Source: Candidatus Magasanikbacteria bacterium GW2011_GWA2_56_11 (lineage in GTDB: Bacteria; Patescibacteriota; Patescibacteriia; Magasanikbacterales; UBA922). From it: a stretch of DNA of 64,000 nucleotides. Within the stretch, counting starts at the first letter, position 1; each line of letters starts with the position of its first letter. The notes under the pieces are model-generated. The model made no database searches, was not told the origin of the DNA, and worked only from the letters and a program-made list of their open reading frames with translations. Position numbers and translations under genes: made by a program. The stretch is taken from assembly GCA_001004885.1 (NCBI GenBank), contig LCRX01000009.1, positions 1,459 to 65,458 of the forward strand, written 5' to 3'. Of the stretch, positions 15,643-58,640 are shown piece after piece.

Positions 15643-15673
<31 letters not shown>

Positions 15674-16673: not shown

Positions 16674-16690
16674 GCCAGCAGCAGCGGTAA
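16076..16690 (+). CDS. LAGLIDADG homing endonuclease (two-motif, intron-encoded)
   Basis: LLGDGWL and WYQDDGT LAGLIDADG motifs; the ORF reads through the 3' splice site into exon 2. Confidence 0.8.
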   Translation: MKAEVKEIVTASLLGDGWLTELKPRTGTAMYYVKYHGRSRDYLQWLHGQVRELGPSELKEVARYGQYYFYTKARTDIGELRKLFYPNEGRKVIPRNIRELLSTPKALAIWYQDDGTLDKRSRDHWNAMFATYCFGYEECELLAKTLKDNFDLAVSVCRCQMRGKMYYRLYVRSQSMNNFIRLVQPHIHPSFSYKISLNNGQQQR

Positions 16691-39480: not shown

Positions 39481-39906
39481 ATGAACATATTGGCTATAGA
39501 TTACGGCAGTAAAAATATTGGCTTGGCCTGGGTGCAGGCAGGGCTAGACGTGGTGCTGCCGTTCGGGCGAATTTCGGCCCTGTCCGGAACCGGGAAGGGC
39601 AGAGGGGGGGTGGAAGATGTCGCCCGGGTGATAAAAGAAGAGGGCGTCGGCCTCGCGGTCGTCGGCTTGCCTTTGGGCCTGGATGGGAAAGAAAACGAAA
39701 ACACCAGGCGGGTGCGGTCGTTCGCGCGGGAGCTGCGGCAGGCGGCAGGCATCCCGGTAAAACTATTTGACGAGCGTTTTACTTCCCAAGCTGCTGACCG
39801 GCTCGGCCAGGGCGGCGCGAGCCGGGACGAGAAAGCGGCCATGGCCATACTGGAGACATATTTGGGGCAGGAGAAGCGATCCGGTTCTGGTCCGGACAGG
39901 CTTTAA
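39481..39906 (+). CDS. ruvX: YqgF/RuvX Holliday-junction-resolvase-like pre-16S nuclease
   Basis: ILAIDYGSKNIGLA...VVGLPLGLDGKE. Confidence 0.85.
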   Translation: MNILAIDYGSKNIGLAWVQAGLDVVLPFGRISALSGTGKGRGGVEDVARVIKEEGVGLAVVGLPLGLDGKENENTRRVRSFARELRQAAGIPVKLFDERFTSQAADRLGQGGASRDEKAAMAILETYLGQEKRSGSGPDRL

Positions 39907-39916
39907 TGTTTTTTTT

Positions 39917-40699
39917 ATGCTCGCCATAGTTCTTTCCCGCCGAGACTTTCGCGAGTTCGACCAAATAGTGTCTGTGTACACGTATGAGGCCGGCAAGAGG
40001 GAACTGCTCGCGCGCGGGATTAAAAAAATTACCAGCAAGCACGCGGCCCACTTGGAGCCGTTTTCTGTGGTTGATGTTTCCGTGGTGCCGGGCAAAGAAA
40101 TTGACCACCTGACCACGGTGCAGCCGGTGGAATATTTTCCGGCCATCCGCGGCGATTTTAAAAAAAGTTTTCTGGCTATGGCTATGGTCATGATCACTGA
40201 CCGGCTGGTCGGGACGCACGTGCCTGATAAAGGACTTTTTCGAGCGCTCAAAACCTGGCTCGAGGCTGTGTCCCAGGCGCCGGCGGCAGCGGGGGCGCTC
40301 GCGGACGCTTATGTCATGGTTATTCTGGAGCGCCTGGGTTTGGCTCCGGTTTTGGAGGGCTGCGTTTGCTGCGGCAAAACTTTTTCTGGTATTGGCCGCG
40401 AGGCCCTTAAGCCGGGCGAAGATACTGCCCCGGGAATATATTTCGGGGGCGGCGGACTGGCCTGCCCCGATTGCCGCCGTCTCAAGCTGGCGGCGGGCGA
40501 ACAAGTGATGGCGGCCGGCCTTAAGGAGATTAGCCTTTTGGGCCTTCTTCTTAAGGGTGACTGGCGGCTGATAAACAATTATGAGTTTGGCTCTGGGGAG
40601 GCCGAACGCCTGCACGATTTGGTTTATGCCTTTGCGCTCTACCATAGCGAGCGGAAGCTGGGGGACTGGGGGAATTTACCCCTGGAGCCAAAGTTTTAG
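39917..40699 (+). CDS. recO: DNA repair protein RecO
   Basis: N-terminal OB region (AIVLSRRDFREFDQIVSVYT) plus the C4 zinc finger CVCCG...CPDC. Confidence 0.8.
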   Translation: MLAIVLSRRDFREFDQIVSVYTYEAGKRELLARGIKKITSKHAAHLEPFSVVDVSVVPGKEIDHLTTVQPVEYFPAIRGDFKKSFLAMAMVMITDRLVGTHVPDKGLFRALKTWLEAVSQAPAAAGALADAYVMVILERLGLAPVLEGCVCCGKTFSGIGREALKPGEDTAPGIYFGGGGLACPDCRRLKLAAGEQVMAAGLKEISLLGLLLKGDWRLINNYEFGSGEAERLHDLVYAFALYHSERKLGDWGNLPLEPKF

Positions 40700-43429: not shown

Positions 43430-46400
43430 ATGGCGCCATTCCTTTTGCCGTATTTGCGACGCATAAAGGAAATCCTGCCGGGTAGGCTCCGCCAGTACCG
43501 CTGGTTGGCGTTTTTTGTTGCTGCCGTCGGCATTGGCATGCTGGTTTGGGCGGGGCCGGCGGCGGCTCTCGACGGAACCGATGTTTTGAACGCCTTTATC
43601 AAGGCTATCGCCTGGCTCATGCTGGTTATCGCCCAGATTTGCATCGGGCTTACCATTTTTTTCCTGCGGTTTTTCATTTCCATCGCGAGCTACAACAACT
43701 ATATAGACGTGGACGTGGTCCAGCTGGGTTGGATAATGGTACGCGACGTGGCCAACATGTTTTTTGTCGTGGCGCTCTTGGTAATTGCCTTTGGCACCAT
43801 CTTGGGCCTCGAGGAATACGAGTGGAAAAAGAATCTGGTGAAACTGGTTTTGGCCGCCATTTTCATCAACTTCAGCAATCTTATCGCCCAGCTTATCATA
43901 GACGTGGCGCACGTTTTTACGATTACGTTCCTGAACGCGGTTTCGGCCACGGCCGGCGGCAATTTGATCAACATGTTCAAGCTGCAAAATATCCTGTCCA
44001 TCACCGGTACCGCAAACTCAGCCGACGACGATATTTTGCTCGCCACGCTGACCGGCGCCATTACGGCCGTGATTTTTTCCGTCATGGCCGCCATTGCCAT
44101 GGGTTCGTATGTTTTTGTCATGGCGTCCCGCGTCGTGGTCCTTTGGGCGCTTATCATCCTCTCGCCCCTGGCTTATCTTTTGGGCGTTTTGCCCAAAACC
44201 AAATCATACGCCGATCGCTGGTGGAGCGAGTTCGGCAAGCACGTGATCGTCGCGCCGGTGATGGTGTTCTTTCTTTGGCTGTCCTTCGCCACCCTGGGGA
44301 CCGGAGATATTATCACCGATATTGAAGCAAACGTCCCCAAATCGCAGCAGCTCGAGCAGATGGAGAATAGCGGCAAAGCTACCCAGATTTCGCTTTCCGA
44401 CGTTACTACCTGGGAAAACATGGCCAACTTCATCCTGGCTTTGGCCTTTATGATCGTCGGCCTCAAGGTTACCCAGGAAACCGGGGCCTACGGCAGCGGC
44501 GCGGTGAGCAAGGCCGTGGATTTCGGCAGAAAAGTGGCTACTATCGCGACCGGCTACGCGGCCGGCCGGTGGCTCGTGGGCAAGGGCCAGGATGTGGCGG
44601 CTTTTGCCGGCAAGGGTATTGCCAAGGGCGCCTATATCGCCACTCTCGAAAATCCGGTGGAGCGCTTCAAGATGGGTTTCATGCGCAACGTGGTCGAAGG
44701 TTATCGCGAGTGGCGCGCGCGCGGTCCGCTGATCGCCAAACGGGAACGCGAGGCCGAGTTGGCAGAGGGCCAAGACCTGACGGTGGCCGAGAAAGCCGCC
44801 GGCATGAAAGTGGTTGAGAACCGGGCCGACGCCACGGGCAAAATTTTCAAGTCCGAGCTGGCCGAGGGCGAGCAGTTGACCGACGCCGAGAAGGCGGCCG
44901 GCATGCGGGTGGCGGAAAGAGCCAAACGTTTCAAGGGTAACAGCCGGGGTGAGATCCTCAAAGAAAACTACTTCGAGTTCGAAAAGAACGATCCGCGCAA
45001 CGCCTTGGTCCGTTTCGTTCACGGACGATTGCACAGCCGCCACGAGAAGCTGATCAAGTCGAAAAAACTTTTGGAAAAAGTTACGAAAGAGAAGGGTTAT
45101 AATGAAGAACTCATGGATAAGCGGGTAACCGCCAGCCCCAAGCACCTTTTTCAGAGTTTTGAAGGCATAGAAGGCGTGCACCGCTTCGACGCCCTTGACC
45201 GTATCGAACAGGGTATGGTCGAGGCCGAGAAAATGCGGTCGGCCGCCAAAACAGAGGAGTTCTCGGCTTACGGCAAGGCTTTGATTTTGGAAAACCCGCG
45301 TTTTAAAGACGGCGAGTGGAAGGTACCGGGTACGAGGGGCGCCAAAGGCAGCATGATCGAGCAAATCGTCGAGCACAAGGAAAAGGCGGCCCTCGCGGAG
45401 CAGCGCATCCAGCAGCTGACAAGTGGCACCAAGGAAAAGTACCTGAAAGGCTCCAAGGGCCAGATGACGCTCCAGGGCCGGATAAAGGCCGAACTCGAGA
45501 CCAAGGCGCACGACGCCGAAGCGCAAAATCTGCAGGCCGCGGCCCAATTCCAGGTGGCCAACACCGATGTGCGCGAAATGGAGCGCCGCCGGAAAGAGCT
45601 GGACGACAAGGTGGCGCGCGGCGAGATGTCGCCAGAGCAGGCGGAAAAGGAAAGAAAAAAGCTGCGCGACGTTATCGCCCGGACCGTGGCCTCCGAAAAG
45701 CAGGCGCACACCTCGGAGATGGAGACCGAGGAATTGACCAAGGGGAAAGAGCGGGAGTATTACGGGACCAGGCATGGCGAAGAAGAACTGGCCAAGGAAG
45801 CCGAACTCAAGCGCAAGATCGCCTTGTCCGAGGCAGCGGTTAAATCGAAAGAAACCAAGGCGGAGGAAGAGTTCGCCGAAGATAAGGGCAGAAAAATAAT
45901 CCAGGAAACGAAGGCTCTGGAGGCCGAGACCACCGGCCAGGAGGCGGCCGCCAAGCGGGTCGAAGCCGAGGAACGGCGGAAGTTTTTGGCCACTGAACCG
46001 GGCCGCGATGTAGCCAGGAAAATCCAGGCCGAAGAGCTCAAAACCGGGGCCGAAGAAGAGGTCGTCAAACAGATTGAGGCCGAAGAAAAGAAGAAATTTG
46101 CCGATAGCATGCCCGGGCAGCAGGTCATCGAACAGACCAAGGCGGCTGAACTGGCCCGCGAGGTGGTTGAGGCGGAAATCAAAAAGATTGAAGCGCAGAA
46201 GCGCCGCGAGGTGCGCGAGCCGAGCCGCCAGAAACTAGATGATTTGTACCGCGAATTGGAAGAGATTGACGGGCGGACTGGTTTGACCGGCATCGACAGG
46301 GAGCTAGAGGCCAAAAACAGAGATATCGCGGCCAAAGAAGAGGAAAAGCAAAGAAGATTGGAAGAAATCAACGAGTACGTTTTGGGGTCCAAGAACAAGA

Positions 46401-49216
46401 CAGAGAAAAAACAGCGGACCCAAGAAGCCAAGGCGCAAAAAGCTGCCCTTGACAAGGAAATGTCCGATCTGTACGACAGCCGGGATGAAATTGTCGGCCG
46501 CCGCCAGGCCGTCAAGAGAAGCGCCGAGGCGCAGAAGGACGAGGCCTGGAAAAGTTTCCAGGACCGTTTGGAGCCGGGAGACCTTTTGGCCCGCAAGGTG
46601 GCCGCGGAAAAACAGGCCCATACCGAAGAGCTCAAGGTGGAGCAGATCGAAAAGGCTATGGAGCGCTCTTATTTTAGCGGCACCCATGGGCAGCACGAAC
46701 TCGAAGAAGAAGTGGCGCTCAAGGCCAGGGTAGAGGCCGATTCGGCCGAGGTCGAAGAAAAGGAAGCCAAGGCCAAACGGGATTACTTTTATGCCGGTCG
46801 CCATCCGGAGGCCAAGGTGCTTTTGTTCCGCAAAGAGCAGGCTACTCTGGGTAAACAGGCGGAAGAAGGGGAAACTGAACTGATGGAGCTGGAGCAGCGC
46901 CGCTTGGCCATGACCGCCGGCGCCGGCGCCGGCGGGCGGTTTACCCGTATCCAGGACGCGGCGGTGCGCAAAGAAGCCGAACAGGCGGAGATAACCAGGA
47001 CGGAAAAAGAGGGATTGCGCCAGGCGTACGACAGGGGCGCGGAGCAGGTTACCCGCGCCAACCTGGCCGAGCAGGCGGCCAAAGCGGCGGAGGAATTTAT
47101 CAAGCAAATAAAGAGCGCCGACCTGGAGAAGCAGTTTGTCGAGGCGGGCAAAAAACTGAACGAACTGTTGAAAAAAAGCAAAAATGACCTGAAGACACTG
47201 ATAGACGAGGTGAAAAAAGGCCGCCACGACGGCATCGTATCCGCGCTCGGCGCCGCCCAGGTTATCGGGGTGCAGGAGAAGAATACAGAACTGGCGCGCA
47301 AGCGCGCGGACGACGCGGCGCATGACGCTTTTGTATACAAGCCTAATTACGGCACTACTTCTCCCTCTTCCGCTTTTGCCGACTATGCCAAAAAGCAGCT
47401 CGAATCCTTCCGCAGCATGGAGCGCGCCAAGGCTATGAAGCAGGCGACGGACATTATGGCCCATTTAACGGAGATCAAGCGTAGCAAAAAGCCGCTGACA
47501 GTTGACCAGGAGGCCGAGCTGGCGGCCTCGACCACGTTCCTGACCGAAGAGGCCTGGGTAGACGATCAGGGAGAATACATATTTAAGATGCTGGGCAAGC
47601 TGCAAAAAGGCGAGATTGACGACGAAGACGAACGGCGGAGCTGGCAACATATGGCCGAAATGTTTGCTGAAATGGGCTGGATAAAGGGGGCGGACGGGAA
47701 AAGCGACCAAGTTTTTGAAGCTGACGGTTCGCTTAAGCGGGATGCCGTGTTGCTTAATAAGTACGACCGTAAGATGGCCGGCGATTTGCAGAATCTGGCC
47801 CTGACCGGGCTGGACACCGAGTTGTCACAAGCGCACAATGCGATTGCCGCAGAGTACGATAAAAATAACGGCAAGGTACAACAAGCGGCCAGCGCAGCGC
47901 AAGATGCGGAAATCACCAAGCTTAAAACGGATGGCAAATATAGGCCTCTTTTGGATGAGGCCGAAACAAATGCGAGAGCGTCAGTGCGGCAGTATTATGA
48001 CGCCAGACTTGTCGCCGTTAAAGAGCAAGCCAGGCAGCAGGAAGAAAAAAAACTTAAAGGCGGGCCCAAGCTAGACGATGCCGCTAAACAGCAACGACTA
48101 GAAGCGGCCGTTGCCGCCGCCGAGACGCAGTTTAGAGTAGAACATGCGGGAGAAATGGAAGAGCAGATTGAATTTCAGATTAAAGTTGAACAAGATAAAG
48201 CGCTGGGGGAAAATAGCGAAGCGAAAGCGGCAATCAAAAAGGCTGTGGAGGATGCCGTTACGCCGCTTAAAAAATCATACTGGGAGGTGGCGGCAGATGT
48301 ATTGTCCACAGGGAAAGGCGGTTCCATTAGTACTGTCGAGCAGCTCAAGGACAGATTTGACCGGCACGGCGATATGCTGCAGTTCGCCACCCGGACCTTC
48401 AAAAAGAACGCTTTGGACACCGGCCACGAAGAGCTGGGTATGAACCAGGATTTTGATGAGGATGAGGACGTTTACCGTTTTCGTACGGCTGGCGAAGGCA
48501 GGGCATTGTTGAGGGCTGACCGTGTTAAGATTGATCGGAGCAAGCTTATAGCCTCTGACCAATTTCACACCAACGGCGTTTTGAACTTTCGCCATGGCAT
48601 AATTGACGATTTCGCAGAGAGCGCTCTATCCCTTACCTTTGGCAAGATAACCAAGGCCATGGAATTCACCAGAATGCCGGAAAGATCTCTTAAAGGCGGC
48701 TATTATATTCATAAAAATGAGGATGCTGCCGTGGAACGCACGCTTGATAAAACTACAGGTAAAATGGTTTCTTATGCTATTTTGGGCAGCGAATCGGCCC
48801 GGGCGAAGTTTGCAGACGATGGCGACGTTACCGCGGAGCAGCAGCGCAACCATATGATGGCGCGCGGCGTGCTTACTCATTTGATGGCTGCGGGTAGCGG
48901 CAGGGGTTTTGCTTTGGGCGCCCACAGACTGTTCCAGCACATCAGCGAGCAGCAAGCGCAGCAGGGGATTGTCAATACAAAAATAGGCGATATGCCGTTT
49001 AGAACGGCCAAGGAGGTGGCTAGGTACATTCGGACGGCTCTGGAGGGTAAGAATGCCGGTTTTATGCATGCCTTCACCCAATCAACGTATGCTGACCAGG
49101 AAGATCGCGTTTTAGCCATGATGAGACAGATCGAGAACGAAAGGCCAAAAGCAGATTTCGGAAATCAGTCGGAGGCCGAAGAGTACGATCAAATGCAGCA
49201 AACTCTGGCAGCCTAA
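43430..49216 (+). CDS. giant 1928-aa protein with a polytopic membrane N-terminus (VirB6/TrbL-like, about 8 TM) and a coiled-coil extension of about 1500 aa containing internal repeats
   Basis: Single uninterrupted ORF; hydrophobic helices in the first ~350 aa; the remainder is E/K/A/R-rich with repeated modules (for example VASEKQAHT...YYGTRHG and VAAEKQAHT...YFSGTHG). Confidence 0.75.
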   Translation: MAPFLLPYLRRIKEILPGRLRQYRWLAFFVAAVGIGMLVWAGPAAALDGTDVLNAFIKAIAWLMLVIAQICIGLTIFFLRFFISIASYNNYIDVDVVQLGWIMVRDVANMFFVVALLVIAFGTILGLEEYEWKKNLVKLVLAAIFINFSNLIAQLIIDVAHVFTITFLNAVSATAGGNLINMFKLQNILSITGTANSADDDILLATLTGAITAVIFSVMAAIAMGSYVFVMASRVVVLWALIILSPLAYLLGVLPKTKSYADRWWSEFGKHVIVAPVMVFFLWLSFATLGTGDIITDIEANVPKSQQLEQMENSGKATQISLSDVTTWENMANFILALAFMIVGLKVTQETGAYGSGAVSKAVDFGRKVATIATGYAAGRWLVGKGQDVAAFAGKGIAKGAYIATLENPVERFKMGFMRNVVEGYREWRARGPLIAKREREAELAEGQDLTVAEKAAGMKVVENRADATGKIFKSELAEGEQLTDAEKAAGMRVAERAKRFKGNSRGEILKENYFEFEKNDPRNALVRFVHGRLHSRHEKLIKSKKLLEKVTKEKGYNEELMDKRVTASPKHLFQSFEGIEGVHRFDALDRIEQGMVEAEKMRSAAKTEEFSAYGKALILENPRFKDGEWKVPGTRGAKGSMIEQIVEHKEKAALAEQRIQQLTSGTKEKYLKGSKGQMTLQGRIKAELETKAHDAEAQNLQAAAQFQVANTDVREMERRRKELDDKVARGEMSPEQAEKERKKLRDVIARTVASEKQAHTSEMETEELTKGKEREYYGTRHGEEELAKEAELKRKIALSEAAVKSKETKAEEEFAEDKGRKIIQETKALEAETTGQEAAAKRVEAEERRKFLATEPGRDVARKIQAEELKTGAEEEVVKQIEAEEKKKFADSMPGQQVIEQTKAAELAREVVEAEIKKIEAQKRREVREPSRQKLDDLYRELEEIDGRTGLTGIDRELEAKNRDIAAKEEEKQRRLEEINEYVLGSKNKTEKKQRTQEAKAQKAALDKEMSDLYDSRDEIVGRRQAVKRSAEAQKDEAWKSFQDRLEPGDLLARKVAAEKQAHTEELKVEQIEKAMERSYFSGTHGQHELEEEVALKARVEADSAEVEEKEAKAKRDYFYAGRHPEAKVLLFRKEQATLGKQAEEGETELMELEQRRLAMTAGAGAGGRFTRIQDAAVRKEAEQAEITRTEKEGLRQAYDRGAEQVTRANLAEQAAKAAEEFIKQIKSADLEKQFVEAGKKLNELLKKSKNDLKTLIDEVKKGRHDGIVSALGAAQVIGVQEKNTELARKRADDAAHDAFVYKPNYGTTSPSSAFADYAKKQLESFRSMERAKAMKQATDIMAHLTEIKRSKKPLTVDQEAELAASTTFLTEEAWVDDQGEYIFKMLGKLQKGEIDDEDERRSWQHMAEMFAEMGWIKGADGKSDQVFEADGSLKRDAVLLNKYDRKMAGDLQNLALTGLDTELSQAHNAIAAEYDKNNGKVQQAASAAQDAEITKLKTDGKYRPLLDEAETNARASVRQYYDARLVAVKEQARQQEEKKLKGGPKLDDAAKQQRLEAAVAAAETQFRVEHAGEMEEQIEFQIKVEQDKALGENSEAKAAIKKAVEDAVTPLKKSYWEVAADVLSTGKGGSISTVEQLKDRFDRHGDMLQFATRTFKKNALDTGHEELGMNQDFDEDEDVYRFRTAGEGRALLRADRVKIDRSKLIASDQFHTNGVLNFRHGIIDDFAESALSLTFGKITKAMEFTRMPERSLKGGYYIHKNEDAAVERTLDKTTGKMVSYAILGSESARAKFADDGDVTAEQQRNHMMARGVLTHLMAAGSGRGFALGAHRLFQHISEQQAQQGIVNTKIGDMPFRTAKEVARYIRTALEGKNAGFMHAFTQSTYADQEDRVLAMMRQIENERPKADFGNQSEAEEYDQMQQTLAA

Positions 49217-49228
49217 ACATATGACCGT

Positions 49229-50605
49229 ATGCACCACCTAGAAACCAAGCAATTTCTTCCGCGCTATTTCGTCGCCGACTGGCCGGTTACAGCTTCTTCT
49301 GTCCGGAAGCTGGCCGAGGCCGGCCGCCGGATAAGCGTGGACAATCCGAAGCTGGATACCGTCTGGCAGTATGCCCGGCAAATTACCGATTTTCTGGCGA
49401 CCGCGGCCGACGATCCGGAGAATTTTGTGTTGGAGCCGTGGGAGCGGCAGGTTATTTCCCTGGTGGAGACTCAGCCCTTGGAAGAGGCTGTGAGCGAGTT
49501 GGCGATGTTGGAGCAGTCAATAGCGAAAGCGAATAGACGAGGCGGGGCAGAGTTGTCGTCGGGCGGCCTGGCAGAAGCGGTTACTTTGAGTGCCGAGAAT
49601 CTGGATTTTCTTAAGCTGGGCGACGATGTGCGCGCCGAGTGGCAACCCTTTGTCCAGCATATCTATTCCCTGGAAGAGTTCCAGGCCAAGACTGCCGCCT
49701 GGGAAGACCTAAATGTCGCCCGGCTGGCGCGCAGCGCGGTAGAGCTGTCGGCAGCCGAGCACAAAAAAGACGCGGCTCAGGCCATTTTATCTTTGTGCCT
49801 CTCCTTGCCGGTCAACGACGCCACGCAGTATACCTGGGAGGAGGCGTTTCTTTTAACTGTCTTCATTCAGGTTGTTTACAGGGCTCTGCCCCAGCTGTCC
49901 GAAGACGACAGGATAAGCGCGGTTAAAAATTTTTTTTACCGCGCCATTATGCTGGGAGTGCCGGTGCGGCAAATTTGCGCGGAATTGGTTTATGATACCG
50001 ACACGCCGATAAGCTACGCGCTCGAACATCGCTCTCTCAGCCAGGCGCTCGCGGACAACGTGGAAAAAGTCGTCCTGTCTTTGGACGGGCCGGTGAGCCG
50101 GCCCTGGAGCGATACGCTGAGTGAATACCGGTCCCGCGCGCGCGGCGGGCAGGACGAGACAAATTCCGCGCGGGAGTACGCGCTTGACCTGTATCCGGAA
50201 GGTGCGGCCGAGCCTAGGCTAAGAGAATGGTACGCCGAAATGCTCGATATTTTTGTCCACCTGGAAAAAGCCGACCTGGTGCCGCATAACCGCGGCGGCG
50301 AACTCGCCCCGGATGAAGCGTATCACAACGACCTGGTCCAGCTTATCGCCTGGTTCGGCGTCGGCGAGGCCGCCCGGAAAGATCTGGTCGGGTATTTTCA
50401 GACCGCCGGCGCGCGCGTGCCGCTCGCGGCTTTCCACAAAAGTCTGGAGGCGGCGGCCGATCTAAGCCAGGATACTACCGTGGAAAACGCGCTGGCTTGG
50501 GCCGATGCCCTGCGGTCGGCCGGGCTGTTGGGTCCGGACGAGGAAATTTTGGAGTTTCACGAGAATGACGGCCGGTTCCATTGGCGCCGGCAGCTGACAG
50601 CCTAA
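49229..50605 (+). CDS. hypothetical acidic protein, paralogue of the next gene
   Basis: Shared segments with the 50610 protein (FFYRAIMLGVPVRQ versus YFYQALASGVPVRYW). Confidence 0.6.
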   Translation: MHHLETKQFLPRYFVADWPVTASSVRKLAEAGRRISVDNPKLDTVWQYARQITDFLATAADDPENFVLEPWERQVISLVETQPLEEAVSELAMLEQSIAKANRRGGAELSSGGLAEAVTLSAENLDFLKLGDDVRAEWQPFVQHIYSLEEFQAKTAAWEDLNVARLARSAVELSAAEHKKDAAQAILSLCLSLPVNDATQYTWEEAFLLTVFIQVVYRALPQLSEDDRISAVKNFFYRAIMLGVPVRQICAELVYDTDTPISYALEHRSLSQALADNVEKVVLSLDGPVSRPWSDTLSEYRSRARGGQDETNSAREYALDLYPEGAAEPRLREWYAEMLDIFVHLEKADLVPHNRGGELAPDEAYHNDLVQLIAWFGVGEAARKDLVGYFQTAGARVPLAAFHKSLEAAADLSQDTTVENALAWADALRSAGLLGPDEEILEFHENDGRFHWRRQLTA

Positions 50606-50609
50606 ATAT

Positions 50610-51590
50610 ATGCCCGCACTCGGTACCCGTACTTTTTATGAATTTCGTCTGCAGATCCCGGCCGACCTTTCCGGCGTGCTTGAGGTAGTAACGCGCGAAT
50701 TGGCGGCCAGCGCACCGGGGAACGGCGCGCCAGAGCTCGCCAAACTGTACCAGTATTTGGAGCCTCTGTACCGGTTGGCAAGCAATCCCTCGCCCCGTCT
50801 GCCGGAAGGGGTCATTGACCAGGCGACAGTCTCCCTGCTCGATGCGGATCTGGCCGACATGGCCTTGGATCCCGATCTTGATCCGGAGCTGGTCATCGCT
50901 CTGTCGGTGGAGATATCATTGGTGGCGGCCGCTACCGGCAATATGAAAGGTATCACGCCGTACACGTTCGAAGAATTTAAGGCCGTGCTTGCCGGCACCG
51001 ACGCAATTTACCACGATATTATTTTTGTCCACACGCTGCGGAGTCTTATCGGCGGACCGGGCAATCAGGAATACGCCGCGCATATTCTCAAAGCCCTGCC
51101 CGGCAAAACCAGCCGGGAGGATAACTATGCCGGCTATTTCTGGGATTCGGCTTTGGTATTCTCCCTGCTGCTCCAGGCCGCCTGGAGGTTTTTTCCGAGC
51201 CTGCCTTCGGTATCCCAGCAATACTTGCTGCAAAATTATTTTTATCAGGCGCTCGCGTCCGGCGTGCCGGTTCGGTACTGGCTTGGGGCCGCTCTCGACC
51301 GCGGGCCGGTGGGTGGCAGCCGCACGCTCAGCAATTTTTTCGTGCAGGCCGTAACCGGCAGCCGCGAAGAAGTGGTGCTCAACCCCATAGCCGGCGAAGG
51401 ACGTAATTTGACCGAGTTTGTCCGGGGGTATTTTCGCGGGCTAACCGCCAATGAACTGCCGGCCATAGCCCAGGAAAAATACCTCAACTCTTTTTATGCC
51501 GATCCAGAGCTTAGAGAAGCGTTCGGACCGTGGGCCAGAGAACTCTTGACCATAATGGTGCTCCTGAAGGATGGCGCGATAAAGATTTAG
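50610..51590 (+). CDS. hypothetical protein, paralogue of the 49229 gene
   Basis: See above; starts 5 nt after the previous stop. Confidence 0.6.
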   Translation: MPALGTRTFYEFRLQIPADLSGVLEVVTRELAASAPGNGAPELAKLYQYLEPLYRLASNPSPRLPEGVIDQATVSLLDADLADMALDPDLDPELVIALSVEISLVAAATGNMKGITPYTFEEFKAVLAGTDAIYHDIIFVHTLRSLIGGPGNQEYAAHILKALPGKTSREDNYAGYFWDSALVFSLLLQAAWRFFPSLPSVSQQYLLQNYFYQALASGVPVRYWLGAALDRGPVGGSRTLSNFFVQAVTGSREEVVLNPIAGEGRNLTEFVRGYFRGLTANELPAIAQEKYLNSFYADPELREAFGPWARELLTIMVLLKDGAIKI

Positions 51591-51604
51591 CGCTTTTTTA
51601 GCTT

Positions 51605-52699
51605 ATGTCTGCCACCCCTACTATACTGGTAAAAAAAGCCGATGGCAGCACCGTCCGGATGACGCTCGCTGAGGCCAAAAAGCTCAGCCAGCCAAAAAAT
51701 CCACCCTCGTCTCTGCCGGCGGCTGCAGCGCCCTCCGCGTCGGAGGACGCCGGACCGGACCGGCTTTTGCCTTTGGCCACACCGGCAGCGGCCAGCCAGC
51801 CGGCGCCTAGCCGGGATAAGCCTCTTTTGGAGCACGAGATCCAAGATCACGAGGTGCCCCATCGGGATATTACCGGCGCGCCCGACTACGAGGCCGCGGT
51901 CGCGCGAATTGTGGCTGTGTCCGGAGCGGTCGTGCCTGCCGAGTTGCGGACCAGAGCGCGGTCGCTTATCGTGTCGGCCCTCAAGGGTATTCGCGATCAG
52001 GAACAATTCCAGGCGTACGCGCGGCAGGCGCCAAATGACGGCGGTTTGGGCTGGACCCCGGAGACTATCCGGGCTGTCTGGTCGCGTATCGAAGGCGAGC
52101 GGGCCAACGCGTCCCGGCTTCCGCTGCCGGCCGTAACCCAGAGTCTCTCTACCACTACCCCGGTGAAAGCTATTTTTCTTGACGAAGCGCGGGCCCAGGC
52201 CTCGGCAGCGTCTTTTTCCCGGCCGCCGCAGCCGGCGGGAGAGAATCCTCGGCCGGAGTTTGTCCGGCCGGCGCCGGCAGGTGGCCTGCCCATTCCGCCC
52301 CCGGCGGCCAGGCCGGGCATGGCCCTGTCCCGTCCGGTACTCCATGACGTGGCGCCGGCCAGAGAAGCCAGGAATTCTCCGGTGACCGGGCCGATAGAGG
52401 AGATACAGACTTTCTCGCTCAAGGACTGGCGCCGTTTGGGAGCCACGCCACGCGCGGCGCGCGAGGCTCTTTTTGCCAAATTTAGCGGCTGGAAAGAAGA
52501 ATCATTGCTCCTGTTTTTGGACATACGCTCGGCCTGGCGCGAGAGTCCGCTGGTGCGCGAGTACCGGTCTCTCGCGGCCGAGGCGGTGAACTCCGGCCGG
52601 ACGATGCGGGAGGCGGCCGGCTCTCAGCCGGCCAAAGACAGGCTGACTGACGCGGATATTATGGAGATCGTTGAACTCAATAGCAGTTTAAGGGTATAA
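51605..52699 (+). CDS. hypothetical Pro/Ala-rich protein
   Basis: 364 aa ORF in the same operon-like array. Confidence 0.55.
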   Translation: MSATPTILVKKADGSTVRMTLAEAKKLSQPKNPPSSLPAAAAPSASEDAGPDRLLPLATPAAASQPAPSRDKPLLEHEIQDHEVPHRDITGAPDYEAAVARIVAVSGAVVPAELRTRARSLIVSALKGIRDQEQFQAYARQAPNDGGLGWTPETIRAVWSRIEGERANASRLPLPAVTQSLSTTTPVKAIFLDEARAQASAASFSRPPQPAGENPRPEFVRPAPAGGLPIPPPAARPGMALSRPVLHDVAPAREARNSPVTGPIEEIQTFSLKDWRRLGATPRAAREALFAKFSGWKEESLLLFLDIRSAWRESPLVREYRSLAAEAVNSGRTMREAAGSQPAKDRLTDADIMEIVELNSSLRV

Positions 52700-52711
52700 T
52701 ACCGGAGGCGG

Positions 52712-52868
52712 AGAACTCACAGCGAGTCCCCATTTTCGCCTCAAACATAGACTGATTTTCGCGGCCCCAAAACTCGCTCTTACAGGCTCAGACATTGGTG
52801 CCGCGAAAATCAGTCTATGTTTCGGCTCGACTTAGAAAATAGAATTGCTGATAACTCACTGTCAGTTC
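52712..52868 (+). repeat. family A repeat copy A4
   Basis: Near-identical to A3 and A5. Confidence 0.65.
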
Positions 52869-52901
52869 ACTATTTAAAGATTTTATTTCCCAAAAAGTTT
52901 A

Positions 52902-53336
52902 ATGCAGCAGTTCGTAGTGCCGCAATTTATCGAAGTGGAGGACAAAATTTTCGGGCCGATCACGACCCGGCAATTTTTAATATTACTCGTGGGCGGGATA
53001 CTGGTTTTTTTGGCCTACCGGTACGCCGATCTGGCGCTGTTTATTTTTACCTTGGCTTTCATCGGCGGGGCCTCGCTGGTTCTGGCGTTCGTGAAGGTGA
53101 ACGGCCAGACATTCCATTACTTTATGCTCAATATCGCGCAGACTTTGCGCAAGCCGTCCCTGCGCGTGTGGCATAAAAGCTTTACCAAGGAGCAGCTCCA
53201 ACACTGGCGCCAAAGCGATCTGGCGCCGGAATCCGCGTCCGCGGCCGCCGCTGTGCCGGTCCGGCGGGAGAGAATCCGCGATCTGGCGCTCCTCGTGAAC
53301 ACCGGGGGATTTTACCGTCCCGACGACAGCGTTTAA
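52902..53336 (+). CDS. PrgI-like (VirB3-analogue) small membrane protein
   Basis: FIEVEDKIFGPITTRQFLILLVGGILVFLAY resembles the PrgI-family signature; two TM segments. Confidence 0.6.
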   Translation: MQQFVVPQFIEVEDKIFGPITTRQFLILLVGGILVFLAYRYADLALFIFTLAFIGGASLVLAFVKVNGQTFHYFMLNIAQTLRKPSLRVWHKSFTKEQLQHWRQSDLAPESASAAAAVPVRRERIRDLALLVNTGGFYRPDDSV

Positions 53337-53355
53337 CGGGACACGAATAAACCTT

Positions 53356-54048
53356 ATGCCGGACGACAAACTCAAAAAAAAGCCAAAACCCAAGCACCCC
53401 GCTACTCAGGCGCACCTGCCGGTGGCCGAAATCAAGGACGGCGTGGTGGTGCTCCGGGACGGCACCATGCGCGCGGTGCTGTTGGTGTCGAGCATCAATT
53501 TTTCTCTCAAGTCCGAAGACGAACAAAACGCGATCATTTCCTCTTATGTCGGCTTTCTGAATTCTCTCGATTTTCCGATTCAAATCGTCGTGCAGTCCCG
53601 CCGCTTGCAGATACGCCCCTACCTGGACCGGCTGATAAAAATGGAAAGGGAACAGGTGAACGAGCTTTTGCGGATCCAGACCGCGGATTATCGTTCGTTT
53701 GTCGAAGAGCTGGTGCAGATCGGGCAGATAATGACCAAGCGGTATTACGTTATCGTGCCTTATGATCCCCTGAGCAACAAGCGCAAAAGTTTTTGGTCCC
53801 GGTTCAAGGAAGTGGTCAAACCGGCGCTTAGCGTGCGGCTGAAAGAAGAAAGGTTCAAACAGCGCCAAGAAGATATCGCCTTGCGCGTGCGCCATATCGT
53901 GAGCGGTCTGTCGAGCATCGGGCTTTCGGCGGTTGAGCTCGACACGCAGGCATTGATAGAATTGTTTTATTCCACCTATAATCCGGATACCGCGTTCGCG
54001 GAGACGCTCAGCAACGTGGAAGATATCCGCCTGGAACAGGCCGCCTAA
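53356..54048 (+). CDS. VirB4-family conjugative ATPase, N-terminal segment, separated from the rest by a stop plus a frame change
   Basis: DGVVVLRDGTMRAVLLVSSINFSLKSEDEQNAIISSYVGFLNSL typical of Gram-positive-type VirB4 N-termini. Confidence 0.6.
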   Translation: MPDDKLKKKPKPKHPATQAHLPVAEIKDGVVVLRDGTMRAVLLVSSINFSLKSEDEQNAIISSYVGFLNSLDFPIQIVVQSRRLQIRPYLDRLIKMEREQVNELLRIQTADYRSFVEELVQIGQIMTKRYYVIVPYDPLSNKRKSFWSRFKEVVKPALSVRLKEERFKQRQEDIALRVRHIVSGLSSIGLSAVELDTQALIELFYSTYNPDTAFAETLSNVEDIRLEQAA

Positions 54049-54052
54049 TTTT

Positions 54053-55918
54053 ATGCCCTTCAAGCCCATAGCTACCAAATCCGGCTCCGGCCTGTCTCCG
54101 GGCAAAAACGCCGACGAGAAAATAAAACTCCAGGAGGAACTTATCACCCTGGAGGAGGAGAGGCTGTACCGCGAAGGCACGGTCGCCATCCGCGATTTGA
54201 TCGCTCCCGCCGCGTTCCGCGTCGAGTCAAGTTTCATCCAGCTCGGGACCACTTATCTCCGGACGCTGTTTGTGGTTACTTATCCGCGTTACATTTCGGT
54301 GGGGTGGAGCGCGCCGATTCTAAACCTCAACTTGACGATGGATATCAGCATGTTTTTTTACCCGGTGAATTCGGCTATTATCCTAAAACAGCTCAAGAAA
54401 AAAGTCGGCGCCCTGGAGGCCCAGCTGTCGGCCGACGCGGAAAAGGGCGCGGCCCGCGATCCGTTGCGGGAGACGGCGTTGCGCGACATCGAGCAGCTGC
54501 GCGACGACCTGACCCAGGGAGTGGAACATTTTTTTCAGTTCGCGTTTTACGTTACCATCTACAGCCAGGATCAAAAAGACCTGGACAAGCTGACCGAAGA
54601 TATTGAGAATATTTTTGGCTCCCGGCTTATTTACAGCAAGAACGTCTTGTACCAGGCGGAGCAAGGTTTCACTTCCACCCTGCCTCTTTGCGTGGACGAG
54701 CTGGCGATTTGTTTCAACATGAACTCATCGCCCATCGCCGCCTCGTTCCCCTTCATCTCTTCCGAGCTGACGAGCGACGACGGGATACTGTACGGCATTA
54801 ATCGGCACAACAATAGCCTGGTTCTGTTTGACCGGTTTTCCCTGCAGAACGCCAATATGGTCGTTTTCGCCACCTCCGGCGCCGGCAAGTCTTACGCGGT
54901 CAAGCTGGAAGTGCTGCGCAGCCTGATGATGGGCACAGAGGTAATCATCATTGACCCCGAGATGGAGTACCTGCATCTTACCGAGGCCGTCGGGGGTACT
55001 TACATAAATATTTCTCTCTCTTCGGACAGCAAGGTAAACCCCTTCGATTTGCCCCGCCCGGTCGGCCAGCAGATCTCCACCGAGGACATCATCCGCAGCG
55101 CGGTGATTACGGCCAAAGGACTGCTGCGGATAATGTTCGGGACGATAACCGCGCAGGAGGACTCTATCTTGGATCGGGCGCTCCTCGAAACCTACGCCAA
55201 AAAGGACATTACGCCGGCGGCGGACTTGACCGCGGTCGAGCCGCCCATAATGCAGGATCTTTTGGATATCCTCGAAGGCATGCAAGGGGCGGAGCAGCTG
55301 GTTTTGAAACTGCGCAAATATACCGAAGGGACGTTCTCCGGCCTGTTCAATTCCCCGACCAATGTTAACGTGGTCAACCAGCTGGTGGTATTCAGCGTGC
55401 GCGACCTCGAGGACGAGCTCCGGCCGATGGCTATCTATTCCCTGGTTAACTATATCTGGAACATCGTCCGGTCCGAGCAGAAGAAGCGGATACTTATCAT
55501 TGACGAAGCCTGGTGGCTCATGGCGCACGAGGACAGCGCCAAATTCATTTACGCGCTGGTCAAACGCTGCCGCAAGTATTATCTCGGCGTGTCGACGATT
55601 ACCCAGGACGTAAACGACTTTTTGCGCTCGCCCTACGGGCAGGCGATCGTAACGAACTCCGCGCTCCAGCTCCTTTTGCGCCAGTCGCCGGCGGCGGTCG
55701 ACACGGTGCAGCGCGTTTTTATGCTGACCGAAGGAGAAAAGTATCTGCTTTTGGAAAGCGGCGTGGGCGAGGGCATATTTTTTGCCGGCAACAAACACGC
55801 GGCCATAAAGGTAGTCGCCTCCTACACCGAGGACCAGCTTATAACCTCCGACCCCAAGCAGCTTTTGGAAATTGAAAAGGCCAAACGGGAATTCGGGGGA
55901 CAGGCCGACCGATCCTGA
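54053..55918 (+). CDS. VirB4/TrbE/CagE-family T4SS ATPase, core and C-terminal part
   Basis: Walker A ATSGAGKSY, Walker B ILIIDEAWWL, and the YLRTLFVVTYPRY segment. Confidence 0.85.
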   Translation: MPFKPIATKSGSGLSPGKNADEKIKLQEELITLEEERLYREGTVAIRDLIAPAAFRVESSFIQLGTTYLRTLFVVTYPRYISVGWSAPILNLNLTMDISMFFYPVNSAIILKQLKKKVGALEAQLSADAEKGAARDPLRETALRDIEQLRDDLTQGVEHFFQFAFYVTIYSQDQKDLDKLTEDIENIFGSRLIYSKNVLYQAEQGFTSTLPLCVDELAICFNMNSSPIAASFPFISSELTSDDGILYGINRHNNSLVLFDRFSLQNANMVVFATSGAGKSYAVKLEVLRSLMMGTEVIIIDPEMEYLHLTEAVGGTYINISLSSDSKVNPFDLPRPVGQQISTEDIIRSAVITAKGLLRIMFGTITAQEDSILDRALLETYAKKDITPAADLTAVEPPIMQDLLDILEGMQGAEQLVLKLRKYTEGTFSGLFNSPTNVNVVNQLVVFSVRDLEDELRPMAIYSLVNYIWNIVRSEQKKRILIIDEAWWLMAHEDSAKFIYALVKRCRKYYLGVSTITQDVNDFLRSPYGQAIVTNSALQLLLRQSPAAVDTVQRVFMLTEGEKYLLLESGVGEGIFFAGNKHAAIKVVASYTEDQLITSDPKQLLEIEKAKREFGGQADRS

Positions 55919-55978
55919 GGGCAGCGGCGCCGGCTAAACCGGCGGCTTGAATCAGTTATCACCTAAATCTTTCTTGCT

Positions 55979-56581
55979 ATGCTGACTTTGCGCCAAAGAA
56001 TTTTTGCCGCCGCCAGTATCGTGGTGGCCTTGTTACTGGCGGTTATCTTGTATATGATTTATTTCCGGCGTCCGTCGGCGCCCGCTAATGACCGGAGGCC
56101 ATCGGGTTCTCCGTCGGCCGCGCTGCCCCAGCCGTCGGCCGCTGCCACGCAGAGGTACAGTGGGACGCAGCCTTTGCCTTCCGGCGGGTCCCGATCCGGG
56201 GTAATTTCCGAAGACGTTTATTTGCGCCAGTTGGCGAAAATTTTTGTGGAGCGCTTCTGGAGTTTTTCCAACCAAAACGGCAATCGGCACATTGCCGATA
56301 GCTTGGAGCTGGCCACGCCGAGCATGCAGGCTTGGATGAAAAGCCGCGCGGACGACGGCGCCGGCCTGTACGAGGGGGTAACGACAGAAATTCTGCGGGC
56401 TGAGGTCGTTTCCAAAGAAGGGGACAAAGCGGTCGTCGAGATCGGCGCCCAGCAAGAAATCAGTCAAAGAACTTCTACCACGACACCGACCGAAACCACT
56501 GTCGAAACCCGAACCGGACGGGTGGAATTGGAGCGGGTGGACGGCGAGTGGAAAGTAGATGCCTTGTACTGGGATAAATAA
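55979..56581 (+). CDS. N-terminally membrane-anchored protein, possibly a VirB8-like T4SS component
   Basis: A single N-terminal TM helix followed by a soluble domain of about 130 aa; the assignment is based on position and topology only. Confidence 0.45.
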   Translation: MLTLRQRIFAAASIVVALLLAVILYMIYFRRPSAPANDRRPSGSPSAALPQPSAAATQRYSGTQPLPSGGSRSGVISEDVYLRQLAKIFVERFWSFSNQNGNRHIADSLELATPSMQAWMKSRADDGAGLYEGVTTEILRAEVVSKEGDKAVVEIGAQQEISQRTSTTTPTETTVETRTGRVELERVDGEWKVDALYWDK

Positions 56582-56635
56582 CGGCCCCGGTCCGGTTTTC
56601 GCCGCCTAGTACCGCCGACTCTTGGCCGCGTAGTT

Positions 56636-56793
56636 GAGCTCACAGCGAGTTTCCCCCTTTTCGCCTCAAACATAGACTGGTTTTCGCGGCCCCAAAACTC
56701 GCTCTTACAGGCTCAGACATTGGTGCCGCGAAAATCAGTCTATGTTGCGGCTCGACTTAGAAAATAGAATCGCTAATAACTCACTATCAGTTC
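56636..56793 (+). repeat. family A repeat copy A5
   Basis: Near-identical to A3 and A4. Confidence 0.65.
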
Positions 56794-56845
56794 GTTGTAA
56801 TTGTACACAAAATTGGCGGCGGATTTTTTCAAATATTGGTCTGGT

Positions 56846-57562
56846 ATGACGATAAGGAGGGGGATCAGTCAGGCAGGCGTCTGGCTGGCCGAAGTTTTAT
56901 TTCCGCTCTTCTGCCTCAAGTGCGGGGCAGAAGGATCGATCCTGTGTTCCGTTTGCCGGGCGGCGCTCTCTCCCCCCGGCTTTTTTGCCTGCCCGCTCTG
57001 CCACCGGCCGCGGGCAGGGGGCAGAGCCTGCCGGCGCTGCCGGTCCGATTCGGCGCTTGACAGCCACTCGGCCCTGGCCGCGTACCGCGAGGACGATATC
57101 TGGGGACGGCTGATCCGGACCTGCAAGTATCAGTACGTGTCCCAGGCGGTTTTGGCTCTGGATCCGGCTATCGCCGCCTTTTGTCGGGCCAATCCATTTT
57201 TTTTCGGTTTCGGCCAGCCAGTCGTTATTCCGGTGCCATTACACCCCTGCCGGGAGGCCGAACGCGGTTTTAACCAGGCGAGCCTGGTAGCGCTGTCTCT
57301 GGCGGCGGCGCTCGGACTGCGCGTGGCGCCGCTTTTGGCCCGCCCAGCCTGGACGCGCCAACAAGCAAAACTCGGCCGCGGGGAGCGCGAACGCAATGTG
57401 CGGGGAGCTTTTTCGCTTGCCCGCGGCGTCTCGGAGGCGCCGCGGGCGGTTATTTTGGCCGATGATGTGTACACTACCGGCAGCACGATGCAGGAATGCG
57501 CCCGGGTCTTGAAAGCGGCCGGGGCCGGATGGGTAACCGGGTTTACCCTGGCCAGGGGATAG
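56846..57562 (+). CDS. comF: ComF-family phosphoribosyltransferase-domain competence protein
   Basis: N-terminal CxxC zinc finger; C-terminal PRTase motif VILADDVYTTGST. Confidence 0.75.
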   Translation: MTIRRGISQAGVWLAEVLFPLFCLKCGAEGSILCSVCRAALSPPGFFACPLCHRPRAGGRACRRCRSDSALDSHSALAAYREDDIWGRLIRTCKYQYVSQAVLALDPAIAAFCRANPFFFGFGQPVVIPVPLHPCREAERGFNQASLVALSLAAALGLRVAPLLARPAWTRQQAKLGRGERERNVRGAFSLARGVSEAPRAVILADDVYTTGSTMQECARVLKAAGAGWVTGFTLARG

Positions 57563-57893: not shown

Positions 57894-58640
57894 CTAACCG
57901 TAATCCACTTCGATGCTGGAAAATTTGCCCGCGCCGACGATGATGTGGTCAACGAGATGGATACCCACCATATTGCCCACGGCTACGAGCTGCCTGGTAA
58001 CGTCAATATCGGCCTGGCTGGGTTTGACGACGCCCGAAGGATGATTGTGGACCAGAATAACGGCCGCGGCGCCGTATTCAATCGCCGGTTTAAAGACTTC
58101 GCGCGGGTGGATGAGGTTGGCGTTGATGGTGCCGATAGAAATCACCTCGTCGTGAATCACGCGGTGGTGGGAGTTGAGGTAAATGCCGCGCAAATGCTCT
58201 TTGGGCAGGCGCGCCATCTCGGCCGCGTAGCGATAGACGTCTTTGGCCGTGCGCAACAGGGCCGGTCCGGTCGCTTTGCGCTCGTAAAAACGCCGGCCAA
58301 GTTCGCCCACGGCGACAATCTGGGCCGCTTTGACGAGCGGGATATCCAGGTCGCGGGCCAGGCTGGCGGCGTTTTTCTGGACCGACAGCGCCCGTTCGCC
58401 GTATTCTTTCACGACGCGAGAAGCCATGTTGAGGACGTCCTCTTTGACAGTGCCGGTGTTGATGATTACCGCCAGGAGCTCGTGCACCGAAAGATTTTCC
58501 GGGCCGTATTTGATAAGTTTCTCCCGGGGTTTGTCGTCGCCGGGCAGGTCCCTGATCTTAAGGACGTATGTTCGGCCCGGCTGGGGCCGCTCCTGCTCCA
58601 GCACAACCACGGCGGAGTCCCGCAGGGCGTAGGCTTGCAT
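57894..58640 (-). CDS. radC: RadC-family JAMM/MPN protein
   Basis: HhH N-terminus; HNHPSG...PSQADI JAMM motif. Confidence 0.85.
   Translation of the reverse strand: MQAYALRDSAVVVLEQERPQPGRTYVLKIRDLPGDDKPREKLIKYGPENLSVHELLAVIINTGTVKEDVLNMASRVVKEYGERALSVQKNAASLARDLDIPLVKAAQIVAVGELGRRFYERKATGPALLRTAKDVYRYAAEMARLPKEHLRGIYLNSHHRVIHDEVISIGTINANLIHPREVFKPAIEYGAAAVILVHNHPSGVVKPSQADIDVTRQLVAVGNMVGIHLVDHIIVGAGKFSSIEVDYG

Follow-up and report, generated by a model that had tools for sequence, protein, structure and literature searches.

A probable chromosomal type IV secretion system of Magasanikbacteria with a 1928-residue VirB6-like protein and two candidate accessory families

A phylum-wide survey describes Patescibacteria's type IV secretion system (T4SS) as a set of TrsD, VirB4, PrgI and VirB6 without a relaxase (PMC12102498, Quiñonero-Coronel et al. 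2025). TrsD is its most abundant component in Patescibacteria, the systems of the class ABY1 are linked to comF and to VirB8 hits, and VirB2-like pilin genes or arrays near virB4 are frequent in Saccharimonadia and Microgenomatia (PMC12102498). In Southlakia epibionticum the T4SS is essential (PMC10633639, Wang et al. 2023). Here we examine a nine-gene cluster at positions 43430–57562 of a 64-kb stretch of DNA (hereafter the window) from Candidatus Magasanikbacteria bacterium GW2011_GWA2_56_11, an organism that the survey dataset lists as ABY1 and VirB4-positive (PMC12102498). The cluster is very probably the chromosomal Patescibacteria T4SS in its ABY1-class form, a system already published. 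The original prediction of a T4SS module was right, and it is essentially the reading of PMC12102498 (2025) and PMC10633639 (2023).

What the cluster has in common with the described Patescibacteria system is a chromosomal position, a set of TrsD, VirB4, PrgI and VirB6 resembling mating-pair formation class FATA (MPF_FATA), the lack of a relaxase in the window, and the association with comF and VirB8. It encodes a VirB4-family ATPase with intact motifs and an adjoining VirB3-like protein, which mark a T4SS; a separate TrsD open reading frame (ORF) beside VirB4, the chromosomal location, PrgI and a host from the candidate phyla radiation (CPR) mark the Patescibacteria type. The relaxase and VirD4/TcpA-type coupling protein that mark a conjugative system are both lacking within the 64 kb. 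Unlike the T4SS of Saccharimonadia, the cluster has no pilin array by virB4. The survey does not describe the size of VirB6, its hypervariable extension, or the U and Pro-rich families found here, and, among the entries of its Table S3 for two other Magasanikbacteria, the main cluster comprises TrsD and VirB4 alone, joined by VirB3 in one genome, with neither VirB6 nor VirB8 in those entries (PMC12102498). Our additions are the 1928-aa VirB6-like protein, the U and Pro364 accessory families, and a quantification of both the variability of the extension and the linkage to comF. We also propose that the giant protein is an extended VirB6 and a 200-aa protein a VirB8-like component of the Magasanikbacteria system.

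PrgI, TrsD and VirB4 form the part of the cluster that is most readily recognized. The PrgI/VirB3-like membrane protein (144 aa; 52902–53336) has two hydrophobic helices and matches PF12666 at 37.1 bits (E=4.8e-9), above the Pfam gathering score of 27, bearing out its earlier assignment; its gene lies 20 nt upstream of the TrsD ORF. The 621-aa VirB4 (54053–55918) covers positions 172–730 of conju_CD1110, a Firmicutes family and its best NCBIfam model, at 337.8 bits against an equivalog cut-off of 325 (E=1.3e-100), and also matches Pfam P-loop_TraG (E=1.5e-28). Its translation shows both nucleotide-binding motifs intact, ATSGAGKS (Walker A) and ILIIDE (Walker B). The 230-aa TrsD-like protein (53356–54048) matches the N-terminal part of the same model, positions 11–105 (E=1.7e-7), and the TrsD/TraD family (E=5.3e-5); its Pfam match to TraC_F_IV is weak, and a precomputed assignment names PF26593, TraC-like. 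Jointly the two ORFs cover positions 11–730 of the CD1110-type VirB4 model, and by these matches the TrsD-like protein is a detached N-terminal domain of VirB4. The family proposed for VirB4 therefore stands, but not the single gene, since the model is divided over two neighbouring ORFs that occupy different frames. Related loci, 77 of 77, keep TrsD apart from VirB4 as an ORF of its own; the split is therefore ancestral, and we rejected a frameshift as its cause. The same split has been described for Patescibacteria (PMC12102498). Together with the membrane proteins discussed below, these proteins make up a full inner-membrane T4SS core of the monoderm type, whose ATPase looks active.

Among conjugative systems, the prototype of MPF_FATA, Prg/Pcf of the Enterococcus faecalis plasmid pCF10, has the same order: prgH (VirB6), prgI (VirB3), prgJ (VirB4), prgK and prgL (VirB8-like). 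The two clusters have the PrgI family and the CD1110-type VirB4 family in common, and PrgL is the best profile match of our 200-aa protein. They differ in that the pCF10 VirB4 is one protein of 796 aa and PrgH has 266 aa and no extension, whereas here VirB4 is split and VirB6 is a giant. Further features of pCF10 are a hydrolase (PrgK), a coupling protein (PcfC), a relaxase (PcfG) and LPXTG adhesins, and the U, Pro-rich and comF genes of the window are absent from it. The Trs systems of pGO1 and pSK41 (TrsD plus TrsE) likewise keep a separate small TrsD beside the VirB4 ATPase (NCBIfam NF041427; PMC12102498), but they serve plasmid conjugation and have a relaxase and a coupling protein, unlike our cluster.

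The first and largest gene (43430–49216) encodes the 1928-aa giant. Its N-terminal part (aa 1–440; 43430–44749) starts with a positively charged N-terminus, followed by a signal-anchor-like helix and ~7 further hydrophobic helices (aa 27–350), and ends in a K/R-rich amphipathic segment (aa 350–440). The remaining 1488 residues (aa 441–1928; 44750–49216) are a hydrophilic C-terminal extension. Extended-VirB6 proteins, defined in a 2025 review, have a large hydrophilic domain of unassigned role (PMC12857230); examples are the Rvh paralogues of Rickettsiales and MPF_FA proteins of 700–900 aa such as Orf15 of Tn916, all built on one plan of at least five hydrophobic helices and a C-proximal hydrophilic domain (PMC12857230). 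With ~8 helices and 1488 hydrophilic residues the giant follows that plan. It differs in an extension of ~1500 aa (up to ~1770 in relatives) that is charged, Cys-free and without detectable shared sequence, and in co-occurring with two dedicated families that lack signals. As a polytopic protein it also supplies the VirB6-like component of a T4SS, an assignment that was proposed earlier and holds by remote homology. The best structural matches of a model of its residues up to 470 are TrwI and the Dot/Icm protochannel protein DotA. Alignment with hhalign of our family alignments to the single pCF10 sequences of PrgL and PrgH was uninformative (E=0.02–0.035).

Directly after virB4 lies the gene of the 200-aa bitopic protein (55979–56581). 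Its AlphaFold2 model, built from a 136-sequence alignment, has a mean predicted local distance difference test score (pLDDT) of 90 and shows a helix at residues 4–29, three further helices and four long strands, an architecture of an N-terminal transmembrane helix, a Pro/Ser-rich linker and a C-terminal NTF2-like domain. Foldseek matches it in the PDB to TrwG/VirB8, TcpC (3UB1), CagV, Bartonella VirB8, OrfG, PrgL and TraE (E=6e-5 to 6e-4), with generic NTF2 folds also among the matches. Searched as a domain-only profile, it has PrgL (7AED) as its top PDB sequence match (E=0.068); it matches no Pfam family, and its weak Pfam matches are all to NTF2-like families. Among 1.84 billion representatives we found 863 relatives, all of ~190–200 aa. 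The predicted fold and the position right after virB4 support the VirB8-like assignment made in the original prediction, the fold alone not being specific.

The last gene (56801–57562) encodes a 253-aa protein with the double zinc ribbon and phosphoribosyltransferase-like domain of ComF (Pfam DZR_2 and Pribosyltran). It matches TIGR00201 at E=3.9e-23 (82 bits, below the curated cut-off of 233) and GntX at E=4.3e-22 (also below the curated cut-off), and by this architecture it is a divergent member of the ComFC family, as had been proposed. In related loci the comF ORF sometimes overlaps the cluster, and comF(C) is probably co-transcribed with it.

The cluster is a recurrent unit and not a chance assembly. 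A TrsD alignment run against GTDB, each species being represented by a single genome, gave more than 512 relatives, and we analysed the best 80 loci; these are ABY1-class CPR genomes, with Magasanikbacteria closest, and the same gene order recurs in them across Magasanik-, Falkow-, Uhr- and Kerfeldbacteria. As a reciprocal test, we collected 40 metagenome loci anchored only on the N-terminal motif of the Pro-rich protein (an 8-sequence alignment). The recurrent order starts with the VirB6-like gene and continues with the U family (one or two ORFs), Pro364, PrgI, TrsD, VirB4, VirB8-like and comF, and it is common to the ~120 loci (80 from GTDB, TrsD-anchored, and 40 from metagenomes, Pro364-anchored) across many genera. 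TrsD is present in all 86 TrsD-anchored loci (86/86), PrgI directly upstream of it in 83/86, VirB4 in 81/86, the Pro364 family in 76/86 and the VirB8-like gene directly downstream of virB4 in 68/86. A comF gene on the same strand, at most 1.5 kb past the virB4 stop, was found in 54 of the 60 loci with enough sequence. From the other direction, PrgI, TrsD and VirB4 lie downstream in 24 of 24 Pro364-anchored metagenome loci with enough downstream sequence, and the U family upstream of Pro364 in 38 of 40. On these gene counts the arrangement is far beyond chance, and VirB4 is no isolated ATPase: its neighbourhood is kept across the ~120 loci.

Conservation within the cluster is uneven. VirB4 is 82–88% identical in the nearest relatives, and identity to the nearest of them, locus L007, declines from 86% for VirB4 through 75% for TrsD, 68% for PrgI, 60% for the VirB6 domain and ~50% for the VirB6 extension to 41% for ComF, 37% for the VirB8-like protein, 34% for U326, 31% for Pro364 and 30% for U458.

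Pilins are rare in these neighbourhoods. A jackhmmer search with a CPR pilin found pilin-domain ORFs within ±10 kb in 5 of the ~120 related loci. In these few ABY1 loci the T4SS_pilin-like domain sits in large proteins (148–1197+ aa) 5–9 kb downstream of virB4, mostly on the opposite strand (L077:11033–12610, L067:19088–20635, L057:12774–15225, L075:8843–9289 and L062:10120–13710); the Magasanikbacteria-type loci nearest to the window yielded none.

Between the giant and prgI lie three genes for soluble proteins that the original prediction had singled out as uncharacterised. The products of the first two, U458 (458 aa; 49229–50605) and U326 (326 aa; 50610–51590), are tandem paralogues, as had been noticed (BLASTP E=1e-10, 26% identity over 219 aa), and the third, Pro364 (364 aa; 51605–52699), contains 10.7% Pro, in keeping with its description as Pro-rich. 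No transmembrane segment and no signal peptide was seen in any of the three. An iterative hidden Markov model (HMM) places the U family directly past the VirB6-like gene, accounting for 49 of 58 ORFs in that gap and for 20 more; its matches are always on the same strand, and none occupies another position in the related loci. The duplication is common to the window and its closest relative, L007, and most other loci have a single copy. No separate U gene stands between the VirB6-like and Pro364 genes in L057, L058, L059, L069 and L083. The U family matched no sequence in Pfam, NCBIfam, PHROGs or the PDB.

Pro364 homologues are modular. Their elements are a conserved N-terminal motif, PTILVKKxDG, Pro-rich linkers, a short motif, LSTTTPVKxIFxDEA, and two conserved segments that we call proM (aa 96–168) and proC (aa 258–363). 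The family was recognized by alignment and synteny, and it has no meaningful match in Pfam, PDB sequences, NCBIfam or PHROGs. In one lineage the two families are fused: L068:4739–7030 is a single 763-aa ORF that combines U, proM and proC segments. The U proteins of L063:6830–8131 and L065:6831–8081 hold a proM-like module (E ~3e-11). The fusion and the proM modules in some U proteins suggest that both families act together. The Pro364 homologue of L083:7670–9508 has two proM copies. Judged by their place and conservation in the cluster, U and Pro364 are dedicated, signal-less accessory families associated with the T4SS.

The extension of the giant is its most variable part. It consists of 19% E+D and 17.5% K+R, is Pro-poor and Cys-free, and is less charged over its last ~330 aa, which may be globular. 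It matched nothing in Pfam, NCBIfam, PHROGs or PDB sequences, the C-terminal 368 aa of the giant being searched as a profile, and no internal repeats were found in the giant at the protein level. Across 58 relatives, the hydrophilic part that follows the VirB6-like domain is 54–1771 aa long (median 660); a long VirB6 tail is therefore a trait of the class, and the 1488 aa of the window lie near the top of the range. Similarity between species is patchy and mosaic, with stretches at about aa 534–697 and 1166–1477 kept in subsets of the relatives, and by this comparison the extension is a fast-evolving region. The earlier description of a coiled-coil, fibrous giant finds no clear support: heptad periodicity is barely above that of locally shuffled controls, with 131 high-scoring 28-aa windows against 97±27 and a mean score of 2.44 against 2.26±0.08. 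Opposite-charge i/i+4 pairs are enriched (138 against 103.5±8.6, ~4 SD), and the extension is charged and probably helical.

In the close relative L005 (L005:7–4470; VirB4 82% identical), two separate ORFs stand in place of the giant. One is VirB6-like and has 533 aa, its N-terminus cut off by the contig end; the other, of 934 aa, matches the C-terminal extensions of the giants in L053, L040 and L032 and not that of the window. Hence either the extension can occur as a protein of its own, or the L005 assembly has a frameshift. In the window, the stop of the giant (49214–49216) and the start of U458 (49229) share a reading frame, four codons apart (49103–49300). Gene calling on another assembly of this organism, the metagenomic L001 (L001:5051–6553), makes U458 500 aa and the giant 1943 aa long; start and stop calls thus vary between assemblies.

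On which side of the membrane the extension lies can be approached through charge. Averaged over 35 giant homologues, the N-terminus carries a net charge of +4.8, and the 90 aa past the last hydrophobic helix contain 11.3 K/R for a net charge of +7.3. Because both flanks are K/R-rich, the positive-inside rule puts both ends, and hence the extension, in the cytoplasm; the signal-less partners encoded right downstream agree with this. We give a cytoplasmic extension slightly better than even odds, and an external one slightly worse than even.

All nine ORFs are intact, and every ORF in the original prediction is present on the + strand in the order and at the positions it gave. Intergenic spacing is 4–60 nt, bar two gaps of ~200 nt. 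A sigma-70-like match, TTGAAC-18-TATAAT (52671–52700), coincides with the 3' end of Pro364, ~200 nt before prgI, and another, TTGATA-18-TATAAT (53953–53982), falls within the 3' end of TrsD, upstream of virB4. Promoter-like sites in the region number 17 against 6.8±2.7 in shuffles, these being consensus matches only; likewise, the scan of the region for promoters and terminators gave consensus matches only and nothing decisive.

The setting of the cluster is that of an ordinary chromosome. The window belongs to a Magasanikbacteria (class ABY1) chromosome, and the CPR-type host proposed originally is confirmed by a 16S rRNA gene that carries a group I intron and by the Pro-rich 364-aa protein, which is identical to an NCBI Magasanikbacteria entry (locus tag UY92_C0009G0058). 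Upstream are ribosomal protein operons and genes for EF-G, EF-Tu, SecY, Adk, RecO, RuvX, AsnS/AspS and RsmB, and downstream genes for RadC, HSP20, VanW, ClpP, a DHH protein and SMC. GC content is ~55% in the window and 0.53–0.60 in the cluster, similar to the flanks. Pfam scans, precomputed and new, covered essentially all genes of the 64-kb window and found no relaxase, VirD4/TcpA-type coupling protein, integrase or pilin family, in line with the original remark on relaxase, coupling protein and pilin. That includes VirB2 and T4SS_pilin, and pilin genes are not required for membership in the Patescibacteria T4SS. T4CP-like (type IV coupling protein) hits are listed elsewhere in Magasanikbacteria genomes among the survey's entries (PMC12102498). 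Because its flanks are housekeeping genes, its GC resembles theirs and the window holds no integrase, relaxase or coupling protein, the cluster is chromosomal and is neither a mobile nor a conjugative element. A mobile-element reading was rejected on the housekeeping flanks, the lack of an integrase in the window and the unremarkable GC.

The proposed machine would consist of a membrane core made of the extended VirB6 as channel or platform, PrgI/VirB3, TrsD with the VirB4 ATPase, and the outward-facing VirB8-like NTF2 protein. We suggest that this machine transfers macromolecules between host and epibiont, and we tentatively favour import of nucleic acids, both direction and substrate being part of the proposal. 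VirB4 and TrsD, docked on PrgI, would power the transfer of nucleic acid from an attached host cell through the VirB6/VirB8 assembly; ComFC would handle the incoming single strand on the cytoplasmic face; and the VirB6 extension, with the U and Pro-rich proteins, would form a cytoplasmic platform in place of the missing coupling protein. This mechanism as a whole is tentative too. What speaks for the platform are the K/R-rich ends of the giant, the lack of a transmembrane segment or visible signal peptide in U and Pro364, the fusion in L068, and the tight spacing of these genes (4–14 nt).

Import is favoured because comF is almost invariably the next gene, sometimes overlapping; because uptake T4SSs such as Helicobacter pylori ComB also lack a coupling protein; because these organisms cannot make nucleotides; and because the field already suspects the T4SS of nucleotide supply. 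In H. pylori, ComEC and ComF act later in uptake than ComB, and DNA handling on the cytoplasmic side falls to a ComF-type protein. ComB is a T4SS without VirD4 or relaxase and serves import (PMC12857230), but it is a diderm, MPF_T-type system with VirB7, VirB9 and VirB10, and for the CPR system import is a proposal. That the T4SS of Patescibacteria supplies nucleotides has been put forward as speculation (PMC11665869).

Several observations weigh against nucleic-acid import through a VirB6- and VirB8-based core. In Saccharibacteria, which are another class, the T4SS is essential and ComEC dispensable, which argues against simple dependence on a competence pathway. The adjacency of comF could be inherited synteny without functional coupling. 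For the giant, VirB6 Pfam scores fall below the gathering score, Foldseek E-values exceed 0.001 with TM-scores of 0.2–0.38, and a Pfam scan of five other full-length giants gave no match at E≤0.01. The NTF2 fold is widespread, and the VirB8 call therefore leans partly on context. No VirB1-type hydrolase is encoded in the cluster. Finally, cryo-EM of R388 shows VirB6 embedded in the membrane by no helices other than α1 and α2, its other hydrophobic helices making up a pentameric stalk outside (PMC9259494, PMC12857230); by analogy the extension could start outside the membrane, which contradicts the positive-inside argument.

The main rival is effector export, in which proteins would be injected into or onto the host and U, the Pro-rich protein and possibly the extension would be substrates or adaptors. 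This is rather unlikely in our view, although it draws on the pattern of divergence: relative to L007, U and Pro364 (30–34%) and the extension (~50%) fall well below VirB4 and TrsD, and fast divergence is typical of host-interaction proteins. Pro364 is modular, with disordered-looking Pro-rich linkers and short linear motifs; effector delivery is the usual speculation in the literature; and the absence of relaxase and coupling proteins leads the S. epibionticum authors to favour export of proteins (PMC10633639). Export, however, leaves the conserved comF linkage unexplained, and most exporting T4SSs need a coupling protein, of which none adjoins the cluster. Moreover, U and Pro364 keep a fixed position, are near-universal in the operon and are fused in one lineage, which looks like structural parts rather than an effector repertoire. 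Still less probable is a cryptic or decayed conjugative element, left with no present function after the loss of its relaxase and coupling protein. VirB4, PrgI and TrsD do belong to families found in conjugative plasmids and in integrative and conjugative elements of monoderms, and neither relaxase nor coupling protein lies nearby in the window, but decay fits poorly with nine intact ORFs and intact ATPase motifs, with order and content kept across many genera and ~120 loci at 82–88% VirB4 identity, with housekeeping flanks of similar GC and no integrase in the window, or with a homologous system that is essential in S. epibionticum (PMC10633639). We consider it very improbable indeed.

A different use of the giant would place its extension outside the cell. 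Here VirB6 would form a pentameric stalk of the R388 type, from which five extensions of ~1500 aa would cross the wall, replace the VirB2 pilus and the VirB5 tip, and contact the host. High Glu, Lys and Arg content is commoner in cytoplasmic proteins, and we count it against such a fibre together with the K/R-rich segment past the last hydrophobic helix, which predicts a cytoplasmic continuation (net +7.3 over the 35 homologues), the near-absence of a heptad signal above shuffled controls, and three co-operonic partners without an export signal. The fibre gains from the R388 VirB6, of which only α1 and α2 are in the membrane and the hydrophobic α5–α7 are in the external stalk (PMC9259494), and from TrwI and DotA as best structural matches of the model. 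No pilin or VirB5 gene emerged from the window scans, pilin domains occur near ~5 of ~120 loci, and the extension, at 54–1771 aa and with hypervariable sequence, resembles surface fibrils in both respects. We hold this fibre to be unlikely, and doubt more strongly a scheme that joins it to import: the ABY1 VirB6 would have absorbed the pilus and tip roles, its external stalk bearing five charged, hypervariable extensions of 0.5–1.8 kaa that bundle into a host-reaching fibre or conduit, perhaps over 100 nm in length; the signal-less U and Pro-rich proteins would be its chaperones or first substrates, and ComFC would receive host nucleic acid drawn in through it. If true, it would be a pilus-less, self-extending T4SS for feeding.

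Some features of the window lie outside the cluster. The 16S rRNA gene (15318–17547) gives two Rfam matches, 15318–15868 and 16479–17547, and is interrupted by the group I intron RF00028 at 15798–16084, a classic CPR trait; the intron carries a LAGLIDADG_2 homing-endonuclease ORF (15920–16690; PF03161, E=1.4e-32). Between fusA (EF-G) and trmD, within the ribosomal-protein region, a 561-aa ORF (12245–13930, +) has no Pfam match in either the precomputed or the fresh scan. A 535-aa protein (37747–39354, +) with CarboxypepD_reg and SdrD_B-like beta-sandwich repeats, likely a surface protein, is encoded 4 kb upstream of the module with housekeeping genes in between. Repair and recombination genes bracket the module (39481–40699; 57894–58640): ruvX and recO lie 3–4 kb upstream, and radC lies ~330 nt downstream of comF on the opposite strand, with a DHH/DHHA1 (RecJ-like) gene and smc beyond. 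Near ABY1 T4SS loci, recG and radA have been noted (PMC12102498).

Our analysis adds detail to a known system and does not define a new one. It improves annotation, with VirB6 and VirB8 being unlisted in the survey's entries for two other Magasanikbacteria genomes (PMC12102498). A cytoplasmic docking platform would be told apart from an external contact fibre by where the extension lies. The system matters because CPR bacteria cannot make nucleotides, amino acids or lipids, and the CPR T4SS, essential in the sole species tested and with a role that reviewers call completely unknown, is a leading candidate for drawing on hosts. Its near-invariant operon link to ComFC argues for nucleic-acid handling.

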